IMG/VR virus record: IMGVR_UViG_2541047426_000009 | Location: 1-27,364 of that record | Reading direction: 5' to 3' (one strand) | DNA: 27,364 nucleotides | Origin: a virus | Lineage: Duplodnaviria; Heunggongvirae; Uroviricota; Caudoviricetes | Shown here: in pieces, positions 9,538 through 15,605 of the stretch | Numbering within the stretch: the stretch's first letter is position 1 | Layout: every line of letters starts with the position of its first letter | The notes under the pieces: generated by a model | Databases searched by the model: none | Seen by the model: the letters and a program-made list of their open reading frames with translations, nothing else | Told to the model about the DNA's origin: nothing | Program-made: the position numbers and the translations under genes

Positions 9538-9897
9538 ATGCTCATAGATTTGGTTTTACCTTACCCGCCGACGGTGAACACTTACTGGCGACGCCGTGGC
9601 AGCACATATTTTGTATCAAAAGCCGGGGAGCGTTATCGCCGGGCAGTGGTGCTTATTGTTCGCCAGCAGCGACTGAAATTAAGCCTGTCCGGACGGCTGG
9701 CAATAAAAATTATTGCAGAGCCACCGGATAAGCGTCGTCGTGACCTGGACAATATTCTGAAAGCACCGCTGGATGCGCTGACGCATGCGGGAGTGTTAAT
9801 GGACGATGAGCAGTTTGATGAAATCAATATTGTACGTGGTCAGCCAGTATCTGGTGGACGGCTGGGTGTGAAGATTTACAAAATTGAGAGTGAGTGA
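9538..9897 (+). CDS. rusA: RusA Holliday-junction resolvase
   Basis: 119 aa; motif PDKRRRDLDNILKAPLDALTHAGVLMDDEQ matches RusA family (recalled DRRRRDLDNLQKAAFDALT); AAGAGG RBS. Confidence 0.85.
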   Translation: MLIDLVLPYPPTVNTYWRRRGSTYFVSKAGERYRRAVVLIVRQQRLKLSLSGRLAIKIIAEPPDKRRRDLDNILKAPLDALTHAGVLMDDEQFDEINIVRGQPVSGGRLGVKIYKIESE

Positions 9898-9905
9898 GCG
9901 TAAAT

Positions 9906-10436
9906 ATGATATATCCGGAAATTACAGGCAAAAGCGGCGAACATTTACGCCTGAACACGCTGGAAGCAGTCTGGATCCAGGGGAAATTACGGATGTGGGG
10001 GCGGTGGTCGTATATCGGTGGGGGTAAATCCGGAAATATGTTTAACCGGTTACTGGTTTCGAAAAAGCTGACGAAAACAGCAGTTAATGAGGTTTTACGC
10101 AGCATGAAGAAATCCGGGCTGGAAAAACCGGAACTTGAGGCATTTTTTCGGGATATGACCAGAGGGAAGCAGAAGAGCTGGTTGTCACATTGTACAGACA
10201 CAGAGGCGTTGATTATTGATCGCGTTATCAGTGAGGTGCTTGGGGAATATCCCGGGCTAATCAATATTCTCCGGCAAAGGTACGAAGGACGGGGAATGAG
10301 TAAGAGAAAAATGGCAGAATGTTTAAATCGTACTCACCCGGAATGGTGTTTCAGCACATGTGAGAAACGTATTGCAGGTTGGTTAGCCGTGGCTGAACAC
10401 ATGCTTTATGTACCTATGCACGATTCATTTCGATAA
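9906..10436 (+). CDS. putative late-gene antiterminator (Q-like)
   Basis: 176 aa; directly upstream of a promoter-proximal terminator and the late region; GKLRMWGRWSY motif recalls Q proteins of Stx-phage type. Assignment rests mainly on position. Confidence 0.55.
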   Translation: MIYPEITGKSGEHLRLNTLEAVWIQGKLRMWGRWSYIGGGKSGNMFNRLLVSKKLTKTAVNEVLRSMKKSGLEKPELEAFFRDMTRGKQKSWLSHCTDTEALIIDRVISEVLGEYPGLINILRQRYEGRGMSKRKMAECLNRTHPEWCFSTCEKRIAGWLAVAEHMLYVPMHDSFR

Positions 10437-11025: not shown

Positions 11026-12083
11026 ATGCTTAATACTGTAAAAATATCCAGTTGTGAGTTAATCAACGCCGACTGCCTGGAATTTATGCGGTCGTTACCC
11101 GAAAATTCTGTTGACCTGATAGTCACGGACCCGCCGTACTTCAAAGTGAAACCCGAGGGCTGGGATAACCAGTGGGCGGGTGATGAAGATTACCTGAAGT
11201 GGCTGGACCAGTGTCTTGCGCAGTTCTGGCGGGTGCTGAAACCTGCCGGAAGTCTTTACCTGTTCTGTGGCCATCGTCTGGCATCTGACACCGAAATCAT
11301 GATGCGTGAGCGGTTTAACGTGCTGAACCATATCATCTGGGCAAAGCCGTCCGGACGCTGGAACGGGTGCAACAAGGAAAGCCTGCGGGCGTATTTCCCC
11401 GCCACAGAGCGCATTCTGTTCGCAGAGCATTATCAGGGGCCGTATCGTCCGAAAGATGCCGGGTATGAGGCGAAGGGTAGGACACTGAAACAGCATGTGA
11501 TGGCCCCGCTGATTGCTTACTTTCGTGATGCGCGCGCTGTCCTGGGGATAACGGCAAAACAGATTGCAGATGCCACAGGAAAGAAAAACATGGTGTCGCA
11601 CTGGTTCAGTGCCGGTCAGTGGCAGCTGCCGAACGAAAGCGATTATCTGAAATTACAGGCACTGTTTGCCCGGGTGGCAGAAGAGAAGCATCAGCGGGGT
11701 GAACTGGAAAGCCCCACCACCAGCTGGTGGATACGTATGCCTCTCTGAACCGACAGTATGCGGAGCTGCAGAGTGAATATAAGCATCTGCGGCGGTATTT
11801 CGGTGTGACGGTGCAGGTGCCGTACACCGATGTGTGGACGTATAAACCGGTGCAGTACTATCCAGGGAAACATCCGTGCGAAAAACCGGCAGAAATGTTG
11901 CAGCAGATAATCAGCGCAAGCAGTCGTCCGGGAGACCTGGTTGCAGATTTCTTCATGGGGTCGGGGTCGACAGTGAAAGCAGCGATGGCGCTGGGACGTC
12001 GTGCAACTGGCGTTGAACTGGAGACTGAACGTTTTGAGCAGACGGTGCGGGAAGTACAGGATTTAATCATTCGTAACGGATGA
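11026..12083 (+). pseudogene. DNA amino-methyltransferase (motif IV DPPY before motif I FxGxG), split by a frameshift near 11703-11748
   Basis: ORF 11026-11748 carries ADCLEFMRSLPENSVDLIVTDPPYF; overlapping ORF 11727-12083 in another frame carries DLVADFFMGSGSTVKAA; together one MTase. Confidence 0.7.
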
Positions 12084-12123
12084 GATTGCGGAGTTAATCA
12101 TGCGTCGTTATTATTCAGCAATC

Positions 12124-12199
12124 GGCCCTTTAGCTCAGCGGTGAGAGCGAGCGACTCATAATCGCCAGGTCGCTGGTTCAAATCCAGCAAGGGCCACCA
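12124..12199 (+). tRNA. tRNA with CAU anticodon (Ile2/ileX-like, or Met)
   Basis: Cloverleaf: acceptor GGCCCTT/AAGGGCC, D-stem GCTC/GAGC, anticodon loop CTCATAA, T-arm GCTGG-TTCAAAT-CCAGC, 3' CCA; resembles recalled E. coli ileX. Confidence 0.85.
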
Positions 12200-12279
12200 A
12201 CCGCCACTAGCTCATCAGGAAAGAACGTCACCCTGTGCGAGATTCGGAGTCCCCGGTGGCGGTCCATTATCGGTATTCT

Positions 12280-12356
12280 GCGTTGTTAGCTCAGCCGGAC
12301 AGAGCAATTGCCTTCTAAGCAATCGGTCACTGGTTCGAATCCAGTACAACGCACCA
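12280..12356 (+). tRNA. tRNA-Arg (UCU anticodon, reads AGA)
   Basis: Acceptor GCGTTGT/ACAACGC, D-stem GCTC/GAGC, anticodon stem ATTGC/GCAAT with loop CTTCTAA, T-arm ACTGG-TTCGAAT-CCAGT, 3' CCA. Confidence 0.85.
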
Positions 12357-12760
12357 CACCACACTTATCTGCCCTGACTCTCTTTTGCGGGCTTTTTATT
12401 ACAGGAAAGACACCGGACAGTGAAATGTTAAATGCCTCACAATTCAGGCAGTTGACTGTTGCCTGACATGCTGAGCGTTTGTTAAAAAAATCCTGCATGA
12501 TGAATCCCCCTGAGCGGCGGGGCATAATGACAGATGTTTGGTTGCGTATTGTATAGGCAAGTTGCGGATTCTGTCTGGTCATTGCAGAATTCACCGGGAG
12601 GCACCCGGCATCATGCTGTATACAGAGATTAGGCATATATCCAGGCTTCTCATCGCAGGAGCCTTTTTACATGCAAAAAAAAGCCCGAGTGGGTTCGGGC
12701 AACAGCATGAGATACTTGCATTGTCATTTTTATCGTGTGGATTTTAACCAGGGTTTATAA

Positions 12761-12790
12761 GGCTGCGCAACTGCGCGGCCTTTTTCGTTT
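12761..12790 (+). terminator. putative intrinsic terminator upstream of the esterase gene
   Basis: GGCTGCGC-aact-GCGCGGCC followed by TTTTT. Confidence 0.4.
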
Positions 12791-12879
12791 TGCGGGCTGC
12801 GGTTCTCCTCTTTTGATTCTCCTTGTGGCCGGACCGTGGCCCGCAACTGTTGAGGAAAATCCCGGAAAGGGGAGGAATA

Positions 12880-14295
12880 ATGACATTTAAACATTATGAT
12901 GTTGTCAGGGCGGCGTCGCCGTCAGACCTTGCGGAAAAGCTGACACACAAACTGAAAGAGGGCTGGCAGCCGTTTGGTAGTCCGGTGGCCATAACCCCTT
13001 ATACCCTGATGCAGGTGATTACAGCAGAAGGTGATGTGGTGGTCAGTGGTGCAACTGAGCCGGATTGGTACTACGTCATCGTACTGGCCGGGCAGTCCAA
13101 TGCCATGGCTTACGGTGAAGGGCTTCCGCTGCCGGATTCATACGATGCTCCGGATCCGCGCATTAAACAGCTGGCGCGCCGCAGTACAGTTACGCCGGGT
13201 GGGGCTGCCTGCAGATATAACGATATTATTCCGGCCGACCACTGCCTGCATGATGTGCAGGATATGAGTACGCTGAATCATCCGAAGGCAGACCTGAGCA
13301 AAGGGCAGTACGGCTGTGTCGGCCAGGGCTTACATATTGCCAAAAAACTGCTTCCGTATATCCCGAATAACGCGGGGATCCTGCTGGTACCATGCTGTCG
13401 TGGTGGTTCGGCATTACCCAGGGCGCGGAGGGGACATTCAGTGCGGACGCGGGGGCCAGCCAGGATTCGGCGCGCTGGGGTGTGGGTAAACCGTTATATC
13501 AGGATCTGATTTCCCGCACTAAAGCGGCATTACAGAAAAATCCCAAAAACGTTCTGCTGGCCGTCTGCTGGATGCAGGGAGAGTTTGACATGAGCGCCGC
13601 CACCCACGCACAGCAACCTGCGCTGTTTACAGCCATGCTGGCACAGTTTCGTGCTGACCTCTCCGTGTTTAACGCGCAGTGCCATGGTGGCAGTGCTGCA
13701 GATGTGCCGTGGATTTGTGGTGACACGACGTATTACTGGAAAAATACCTACGGCACCCAGTACAACACCATTTACGGGGCGTACAAAAACAGGGAGAGTG
13801 AGGGCGTTTATTTTGTGCCCTTCATGACAGACGGTAACGGCGTCAATACCGCCACTAACGCGCCGGCAGAAGATCCGGATATTCCGGCATCAGGATATTA
13901 CGGTGCGGCATCGAGAACGAATGGAAACCAGGTATCATCAAACCGCCCGACACATTTCAGTTCATGGGCGCGCAGGAGCATTATTCCGGATCGTATGGCA
14001 ACCGCTATTCTGAACGCAGCCGGGCGCACCTCAGCCTTCATCAGTGGTAAGGCACCGGAAATCAAACCCTCGCCCGGCGGCAACACGCCATCGGGTCCGT
14101 CTGCAGATACGTCCGTTCGCACAATCTCCCTGCTGCCGGCAGCCGGAGAGGCTGCTGCGCAGGGCTGGAGCATTAAGGATGGCGGAATTCAGTTGTCAGA
14201 TGGTGTATTTAAGATCACCAGGCAGAGCAATAAAACCTGGTCCCTGACGCATCCGGTGGATGACGCAATTACCCTGCTGACACAGGGCGGCAGAC
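12880..14295 (+). pseudogene. N-terminal part of a nanS-p-like sialate O-acetylesterase (DUF1737 + SGNH/SASA domain), frameshifted near 13400-13420 and truncated by an IS insertion
   Basis: MTFKHYDVVRAASPSD N-terminus and YYVIVLAGQSNAMAYGEG motif; reading frame switches between track ORFs 12823-13509 and 13392-14531; ORF runs into the IS inverted repeat at 14296. Confidence 0.7.
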
Positions 14296-14337
14296 TGAAC
14301 CGCCCCGGGTTTCCTGGAGAGTGTTTTATCTGTGAAC

Positions 14338-15228
14338 TCAGGCTGCCAGATCATCGTTTCCGATGGAAGCATAATAAGCTTTTTCTGCTTCTGCCGGAGG
14401 AGTATGGCCCAGCCTTCCCAGCAATCGTCGATTGTTATACCAGTCCACCCACGTTAGTGTGGCCAGTTCCACTTCTGCACGGTTTTTCCAGCTCTTACGG
14501 TGTATTACCTCCGCTTTGTAAAGACCATTGATGCTCTCAGCCATCGCGTTGTCATACGAGTCGCCTGTACTCCCTGTTGATGCCAGTAATCCGGCTTCTT
14601 TTAGTCGCTCCGTATAGGCCAGTGACACATACTGAGAGCCTTTATCGCTGTGATGGATGGTGCCAGACGGACGACGGGCCCACAACGCCTGCTCCAGCGC
14701 ATCCAGCACGAATGTCGTTTCCATAGACGATGAGACCCGCCACCCCACGATGTATCCGGCAAACACATCAATGATAAACGCCACATAGACGAAGCCCTGC
14801 CATGTGCTGACGTAAGTAAAATCAGCCACCCACAGCTGGTCAGGTCGTTCTGCCACGAACTGACGGTTTACGCGGTCGCCTGCGGCAACGGCTTTCCGGC
14901 TGATGGTCGTACGGACCTTTTTACCCCGGAGAACACCGGCAAGTCCCATAACCGCCATGAGACGTGCCACTGTACATCTGGCCACCCTGATTCCTTCCCG
15001 TAACAACTGACGCCAGACTTTACGCACACCGTACACCTGATGATTTTCATCGTATACGCGCTGTATCTCTCTCTTCAGCCAGTCGTCGTGCTGCGCACGG
15101 GCACTGCGTTTATCCGGATGATGTCGCTGTTGCTGACAATGGTAATACGTTGACGGGGCAATATGCAGTTCGCTGCATACCGGTCCGACCCCGTACTGCT
15201 CACGCAGCTTATCCAGCAGTGGCATCAT
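14338..15228 (-). CDS. IS3-family transposase OrfB (DDE catalytic domain)
   Basis: 296 aa; matches recalled IS629 OrfB. Confidence 0.9.
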
Positions 15229-15551
15229 TTTTTCCAGAGGCGGTCGAACTCCGCCTTCGCAAAATAAGCGGAAGCCTGGCGAAGGATATCGTTACTGCGG
15301 CGCAGTTCACGATTTTCACGTTCCAGCTCTTTCAGACGCTGACGTTCAGCGCTGGTGAGCCCACCATCACCGCCCCCGGTATCCCGCTCATGCTGGCGAA
15401 CCCAGACACGCAGAGTCTCCGGCGTACAGCCAATCTTTGGGGCAATGGAACAAATTGCCGCCCACTGTGAGTCATATTCATCCTGACTTTCCAGAACCAT
15501 ACGAATCGCCCGCTGACGGACTTCGGGGGAAAAACGAGTATTTTTAGTCAT
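15225..15551 (-). CDS. IS3-family transposase OrfA (HTH)
   Basis: 108 aa; overlaps orfB start, typical -1 frameshift arrangement. Confidence 0.9.
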
Positions 15552-15605
15552 CCTGTTTACCTCTTTCTCAGGGAGTTTAGTCTCCAGGATTTCCGGGGCG
15601 GTTCA

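Follow-up and report, generated by a model that had tools for sequence, protein, structure and literature searches.

We analysed a 27,364-nucleotide stretch of Caudoviricetes DNA (IMG/VR record IMGVR_UViG_2541047426_000009, positions 1 to 27,364; hereafter the window) and, within it, the interval between two phage tRNA genes and an esterase gene, a position where Shiga toxin (Stx) phages carry stxAB. The tRNAs, with CAU and UCU anticodons, found by both ARAGORN and Rfam and annotated by RefSeq in Escherichia coli O157:H7 Sakai, lie downstream of a Q-like gene with DUF1133 and Phage_antitermQ matches at 9894-10436. They are followed by 523 bp (12357-12879) and by a gene starting at 12880 that we designate nanS-p because it encodes DUF1737 and SASA esterase domains. 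An earlier reading of the DNA (the original prediction) had named all of these elements and regarded the interval, about 520 bp with no convincing open reading frame (ORF), as a toxin slot lacking its toxin. The longest ORFs there encode 116 (minus strand) and 69 (plus strand) amino acids without a Pfam match, and the annotations of Sakai, TR01 and 06-3462 place no coding sequence (CDS) in the interval. Positions 11900-13100 are 100% identical at the nucleotide level to prophage Sp9 of Sakai, with the same tRNAs, small RNA (sRNA) pair and nanS-p start, and 12100-12900 has matches of at least 99% identity in 355 E. coli records, mostly O157:H7. The window represents an Sp9-type lambdoid prophage from another E. 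coli O157:H7 strain, related to Sakai Sp9 and not identical to it: relative to Sakai Sp9 its methylase and nanS-p genes are frameshifted, an IS629-type element lies inside nanS-p, and its head genes resemble those of strain TR01 instead.

Both sides of the interval align with the flanks of stx genes. In blastn alignments with 933W and Sp5, identity is 80.7% between 11973-12397 and their Q-distal/tRNA flank, and 76.2% between 12437-12987 and a segment that begins 46 bp past stx2B and extends into nanS-p; for the Stx1 phage 75/02, it is 81.4% over 12423-12980. The original prediction had staked itself on such synteny, and the alignments bear it out. Only 39 bp follow the hairpin downstream of argO, where 933W/Sp5 carry 1341 bp comprising the stx2 promoter region, stx2A and stx2B; thus, the slot is unoccupied. 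In Sp10, left homology stops at 12397 and returns at 12477, with a 744-bp insert containing a TerB-like gene between. Homology returns at 12423 in the Stx1 phages 75/02 and Sp15, and Sp4 is collinear with the window throughout, likewise without cargo. The post-argO hairpin that forms the left border is the counterpart of the 'possible rho-independent terminator upstream of the stx genes' annotated in 933W. It was rejected as a real terminator (fold -6 kcal/mol, z = -0.5, no better than shuffles) and is therefore treated here only as conserved border sequence.

Searches of the interval for a lost toxin were negative, in keeping with the claim that the cassette is absent. Translated searches of the window with Stx1A/B and Stx2A/B (tblastn, E up to 10) returned chance matches only, with E of at least 0.2 and none in 12357-12879, and blastn at word size 7 with both stx cassettes found nothing in the gap. 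No TerB remnant was found in the gap by tblastn or word-7 blastn. The best candidate for a Fur box or pStx1-type site in the gap scored 11/19, equal to the mode of 500 shuffles, whereas a control upstream of stx1A in Sp15 scored 15/19. Judged by its sequence, the locus is the same late-region slot as that of Stx phages, without the toxin. The notion of an empty slot of some 520 bp held in part: the toxin slot is indeed empty, but its variable portion is only about 39 bp and the rest is a module of two sRNAs.

Slot contents among viral contigs were surveyed by blastn. A scan of IMG/VR for the invariant core of the STnc100 RNA, the first sRNA of the module, gave at least 120 loci; its motif TGAATCCCCC followed argO in 43 of the loci listed, which were classed by the distance from argO to the motif. 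Sixteen had a distance of 110-113 nt (slot empty, Sp4 type) and five one of 145 nt (slot empty, the window's own type), while two, at 170 and 245 nt, held short partial fillers. Longer distances of 732-736 nt (6 loci), 804-864 nt (10 loci) and 1441-1443 nt (4 loci) corresponded to a 108-amino-acid ORF with no Pfam match, a TerB-domain gene and stx2AB, respectively. Because the distances form discrete classes with different contents, the site is a polymorphic cargo slot. It was empty in 21-23 of the 43 loci listed, about half, making this the commonest state in a non-random sample; among the sampled contigs listed, an empty slot is common, not exceptional. The approximately 730-bp insert with the conserved 108-amino-acid ORF (MVFSALNIYHSYGVGRVNIDEASG...), found in L011, L054, L062, L073, L088 and L090, is a fourth slot occupant.

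On the late-gene strand, the slot is followed by an sRNA gene of the STnc100 family. The Rfam STnc100 model (RF02076) matches 12466-12674 (+) over its full length (model positions 1-206) with 175.2 bits against a gathering threshold of 47 (E = 4e-41). Rfam also places the family in the same position in Sp4, Sp5, Sp10 and Sp15; among these Sakai paralogues it is accompanied by AsxR in Sp5 and by AgvB in Sp10, and stands alone in Sp4 and Sp15. The terminator of the RNA, at 12643-12672 (+) with a fold z = -3.7, was missed in the original prediction. Two candidate promoters, both conserved among the paralogues, can be read upstream. One, with the -10 element TTAAAT at 12428-12433, would start near 12440 and yield an RNA of about 233 nt; the other, with TTGCCT (-35) at 12459-12464 and an extended -10 TGTTAAAAA at 12480-12488, would start near 12495 and yield about 177 nt. 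Northern blots of paralogues gave approximately 235/247 nt for EcOnc27 and approximately 177 nt for EcOnc06 (PMC4104026 Table S2), and both predicted lengths are near these sizes. A plus-strand Hfq peak in Sp9, EcOnc28, lies about 60 nt from EcOnc03 (PMC4104026 Table S2) and, by that offset, falls within the STnc100 match. The STnc100 RNA downstream of stx2B (EcOnc27, sRNA103) is discussed in three recent papers, and effects on fimZ/espA are reported for the Stx2-phage copy only. Some IMG/VR contigs contain three to five STnc100-family genes in tandem (L016 2265-3380; L033 1702-2340; L066 4349-5513 and 8357-8555), so the gene can be amplified into arrays. The L066 array has a period of about 254 bp and adjoins an isrI match, and that of L016 lies directly 3' of phage tRNAs.

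Convergent with this gene is EcOnc03, a member of the AgvB/AsxR 'anti-sRNA' group, whose published 51-nt sequence (Fig. S4, PMC4104026) matches 12679-12729 (-) exactly. The STnc100 match ends at 12674 (+) and the anti-sRNA match at 12676 (-), placing the two genes tail-to-tail. A minus-strand hairpin had been noticed at about 12680-12705 and taken to suggest a small transcript. This guess was sound: the hairpin is the terminator of EcOnc03, with its stem at 12683-12700 (-) followed by a U-run (z about -2.2 for the fold of the whole sRNA). Expression, size and Hfq dependence have been demonstrated for the identical sequence in Sakai, where EcOnc03 of Sp9 was the third most abundant unannotated sRNA in Hfq cross-linking and analysis of cDNA (CRAC; PMC4104026), gave northern bands of 56, approximately 54 and 51 nt, and was less stable in an hfq mutant (PMC4104026 Table S2). 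EcOnc01a/b (AgvB), EcOnc02 (AsxR) and EcOnc03 have a common 3' region of approximately 42 nt and distinct 5' regions of 14-18 nt (PMC4104026). Placed by Rfam at 12676-12735 (-), the AgvB model (RF02702) scored 56.6 bits, aligned through positions 20-62, and AsxR (RF02703) scored 46.8 bits, under its gathering threshold of 63.

The 5' variable region of EcOnc03 is CGAUAAAAAUGACAAUGCA. It lacks CACAACA, the GcvB R1 target consensus of AgvB proper, and across positions 5-20 of the AgvB model its Rfam alignment is broken by mismatches and a gap; nor does it correspond to the AsxR 5' region, CGAUUAUUAAACGA. With CACAACA absent and the FnrS-pairing 5' end of AsxR not shared, the target of EcOnc03 must differ from those of AgvB and AsxR. 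Comparison by eye with core sRNA sequences gave matches of 6-9 bp only, which were judged unreliable, and we make no target claim. TTGCGC-N17/18-TAAAAT stands upstream of EcOnc03, AgvB and AsxR alike, 6 nt from the 5' end implied by the 56-nt species, and is the predicted sigma-70 promoter.

A scan for terminators found three sites: the two facing ends of the sRNA genes and, in the nanS-p leader, a plus-strand hairpin followed by a T-run at 12759-12790 (z = -2.7), where one had been predicted at 12761-12790. This last hairpin is near-invariant in six aligned loci (the present one, Sp4, Sp5, Sp10, Sp15 and 75/02), including those in which unrelated sequence takes the place of the anti-sRNA, and it recurs at 86-100% identity by blastn in many viral contigs. 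Its placement between the sRNA module and nanS-p suggests that it probably stops transcription unmodified by Q. The -35 element of the predicted EcOnc03 promoter lies within its stem.

Identity to 75/02, a Stx1 phage of Shigella sonnei, changes abruptly within the module. EcOnc03 is 100% identical, its promoter together with the second terminator 98%, and the nanS-p leader 97%, so that 12676-12879 overall matches the sequence downstream of stx1B at 97-100%; the STnc100 body matches at about 59%. This contrast places a recombination junction between the terminators of the two tail-to-tail sRNA genes. The EcOnc03 allele is, as its identity to 75/02 indicates, also the stx1-linked anti-sRNA of that phage. 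When aligned, the 39-bp filler shows 64% identity to the 39 bp that follow stx1B in 75/02 and Sp15, and phages 7888 and H30 match the EcOnc03/nanS-p-leader region at about 83-84%. A composite proposal that we consider unlikely, though not negligibly so, would join three ideas: EcOnc03 may sponge a core sRNA other than GcvB or FnrS, giving the cassette family a third regulatory specificity; the overlap of stem and -35 could tie the yield of anti-sRNA to Q-dependent late transcription by occlusion of the promoter or by collision; and, as the recombination junction suggests, the two sRNAs may be exchanged as separate cassettes.

Collectively, the data make it highly probable that the locus is the unoccupied moron slot of an Sp9-type prophage followed by a conserved two-sRNA module before nanS-p. 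The moron site lies downstream of the Q antiterminator, the methylase gene and the phage tRNAs ileZ-(decayed argN)-argO, and the remaining 440 bp or so before nanS-p constitute a conserved regulatory-RNA module that also stands between stxB and nanS-p in Stx phages. Its products are two convergent Hfq-binding sRNAs, an STnc100-family RNA of approximately 180-235 nt on the late-gene strand and the 51-56-nt EcOnc03 on the other. By analogy with AgvB and AsxR, EcOnc03 is most likely an Hfq-dependent sponge whose 5' end would pair with a host sRNA or host mRNA, and the strong conserved plus-strand terminator would probably block Q-unmodified transcription before nanS-p and the lysis genes.

Several points weigh against parts of this explanation. 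The fold of the whole STnc100-type RNA (12437-12674) is no better than that of shuffles (z = -0.9), so family membership rests on the covariance model, and the RNA could be a primary transcript or be processed from read-through of the tRNA operon, past the weak post-argO hairpin, or of the late promoter (pR'). The AgvB score of EcOnc03 is barely at the gathering threshold of 56, and the CACAACA motif that mimics a GcvB target is missing. EcOnc03 was mentioned by no paper that we found besides Tree et al. 2014, and the sponge mechanism draws on analogy. The role of the second terminator in keeping non-antiterminated transcription out of nanS-p and the lysis genes is probable, as deduced from its position. 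Finally, slot frequencies in the IMG/VR sample are not population estimates.

The prophage might instead be a former Stx phage from which stx1 or stx2 was cleanly removed by recombination between conserved flanks. Homology of both flanks to stx flanks, the near identity of 12676-12879 to the post-stx1 sequence of 75/02 and the partial likeness of the filler to the 39 bp after stx1B all agree with such a history. However, the gap holds no stx-derived sequence at the protein or DNA level and no Fur box, the empty slot is the commonest state among the sampled relatives listed, and the divergent STnc100 body marks the region as a recombination mosaic, so that shared flanks do not show that the lineage ever held a toxin. 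Since the flanks recombine freely and no toxin remnant is present, a stx1-bearing ancestor is compatible with the data, not demonstrated by them. We regard removal as quite improbable, and these sequence data do not give the direction of change.

Two further readings would dispense with the sRNAs, and we consider both extremely unlikely. Were the gap to encode a small protein, the candidates would be the 116-amino-acid ORF at 12286-12636 (-) and the 69-amino-acid ORF at 12538-12747 (+); both exist, and the annotation of Sp10 has a 'hypothetical protein', ECs_1960, that overlaps the corresponding site. Yet neither has a Pfam match or an annotated counterpart in Sakai Sp9, TR01 or 06-3462, the longer runs antisense through tRNA-Arg, indels among paralogues across the region are not multiples of three, and the gap sequence is fully covered by two RNA families with strong covariance-model scores. 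That the hairpins are mere terminators or insulators for the tRNA operon and nanS-p, with no RNA product, would suit three terminator-like sites within 150 bp and a 12759-12790 hairpin that is kept where the anti-sRNA is replaced. This reading is already contradicted by the abundant Hfq-crosslinked reads and the 51-56-nt northern bands obtained from the identical sequence in Sakai (PMC4104026), and the STnc100 match spans the full 206-position structured model at 175 bits. The elements of the slot and of the two-sRNA module are listed in Table 1 with their neighbours.

Table 1. Features of the cargo locus and neighbouring genes, in window coordinates.
Feature	Position	Strand	Basis and remarks
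Q-like late antiterminator gene	9894..10436	+	Pfam DUF1133 1e-110, Phage_antitermQ 1.4e-8; Sakai Sp9 'phage antiterminator' ECs_1778
DNA methyltransferase gene	11026..12083	+	Both halves match Pfam N6_N4_Mtase
tRNA, CAU anticodon, ileZ-type	12124..12199	+	ARAGORN; Rfam tRNA 70.9 bits; RefSeq Sakai ileZ3 (tRNA-Ile, cat)
Decayed argN tRNA-Arg(UCG) remnant	12200..12279	+	Alignment to argN of Sp4, Sp5
tRNA-Arg, UCU anticodon	12280..12356	+	ARAGORN; Rfam tRNA 71.4 bits; RefSeq Sakai argO3 (tct)
Weak hairpin and T-run after argO, left slot border	12371..12397	+	Conserved in Sp4, Sp5, Sp10
Actual cargo slot, 39-bp filler	12398..12436		blastn breakpoints, alignments
STnc100-family sRNA gene	12437..12674	+	Homologue of EcOnc27/sRNA103; Hfq peak EcOnc28 in Sp9
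EcOnc03, 51-56-nt sRNA, AgvB/AsxR 'anti-sRNA' group	12679..12734	-	Published-sequence match, Rfam
Predicted sigma-70 promoter of EcOnc03	12741..12770	-	-10 TAAAAT 12741-12746; -35 TGCGCA/TTGCGC 12764-12770
Terminator-like hairpin and T-run in nanS-p leader	12759..12790	+	Scan; -18.8 kcal/mol, z = -2.7
nanS-p gene, 5' part	12880..14298	+	ATG at 12880; Pfam DUF1737 and SASA esterase
IS3-family element (IS629 type) in nanS-p	14299..15595	-	OrfA HTH_Tnp_1, OrfB rve (Pfam)

ARAGORN and Rfam called exactly two tRNAs in the whole window. The 80-bp spacer between them, passed over in the original prediction, is an argN remnant in which 11 nt of the anticodon/variable arm are deleted and further substitutions have accumulated; neither program called a tRNA there. 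The argN of Sp10 is likewise degenerate. The trailer of argO (12352-12369, CACCACACCACAC) differs from those of Sp4, Sp5 and Sp10 by a duplicated 5-nt CCACA, and we found no evidence of function for this CA-rich segment. Weak Rfam matches to Leu_leader, rpsB, P26 and Plastid-ycf2 were discarded as attributable to chance or to a tRNA read on its reverse strand.

The methyltransferase gene between the Q-like gene and the tRNAs, also unmentioned earlier, is split by a frameshift near 11727-11748 into halves at 11026-11748 and 11727-12083. Sakai, TR01 and 06-3462 have the gene intact, as a CDS of 1059 bp, and the frameshift may be genuine or may stem from a sequencing error. The nanS-p gene has a frameshift near 13390-13510 and is then interrupted by the insertion sequence (IS); the Sakai Sp9 copy (ECs_1781) is an intact 1854-bp CDS. 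Collinearity with Sakai breaks at 14298/15596, and the element, which includes an ALIL frameshift pseudoknot (Rfam, 121.5 bits), has no counterpart at this site in Sakai, TR01 or 06-3462. Farther upstream, a sok antitoxin RNA (Rfam RF01794, 103.9 bits) at 7349-7498 (+) adjoins a prophage hokD-type toxin gene.

The central finding is already known: for this same prophage it has been in the literature since 2014. In that year Tree et al. (PMC4104026) described a moron site, downstream of PR' in Sp3, 4, 5, 9, 10, 11, 15 and 17, that is occupied by convergent pairs of sRNAs, and a 2021 review places such dyads after the late promoter and ahead of the lysis genes in eight or more Sakai phages (PMC7873438). 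The present analysis adds a clean annotation that resolves the slot borders to the base, identifies the decayed argN and gives the positions of promoters, terminators and the breakpoints of the mosaic. Toxin-free lambdoid prophages of enterohaemorrhagic E. coli still carry regulatory-RNA cargo at the Stx toxin site, and stx is one of several interchangeable inserts at the slot.

Comparison with the stx2 locus of 933W/Sp5, ordered Q - ileZ argN argO - stx2AB - EcOnc27/AsxR - nanS-p, reveals the same gene order in the window. Common to both are the post-argO hairpin, the STnc100-family sRNA, the convergent anti-sRNA, the second terminator and nanS-p. Unlike 933W/Sp5, the window lacks stx2AB, its argN is decayed, the 5' region of its anti-sRNA is of EcOnc03 rather than AsxR type, and its upstream part has another type of Q (DUF1133) together with a methylase gene. 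The Stx1 phages 75/02, 7888 and H30 also differ from the window, with stx1AB upstream, no tRNAs annotated there and a divergent STnc100 body. Relative to the Sakai STnc100 paralogues the window copy shows about 57-69% sequence identity in alignment, and it is a full-length match to the covariance model of STnc100, with which EcOnc27 (sRNA103) and PasD relatives are grouped. EcOnc03 resembles AgvB and AsxR in its 3' body of approximately 42 nt with terminator, its promoter sequence, its similar length and its published Hfq dependence; like them, it lies convergent beside an STnc100-type sRNA between pR' and nanS-p, the same arrangement as in Sp5 and Sp10.

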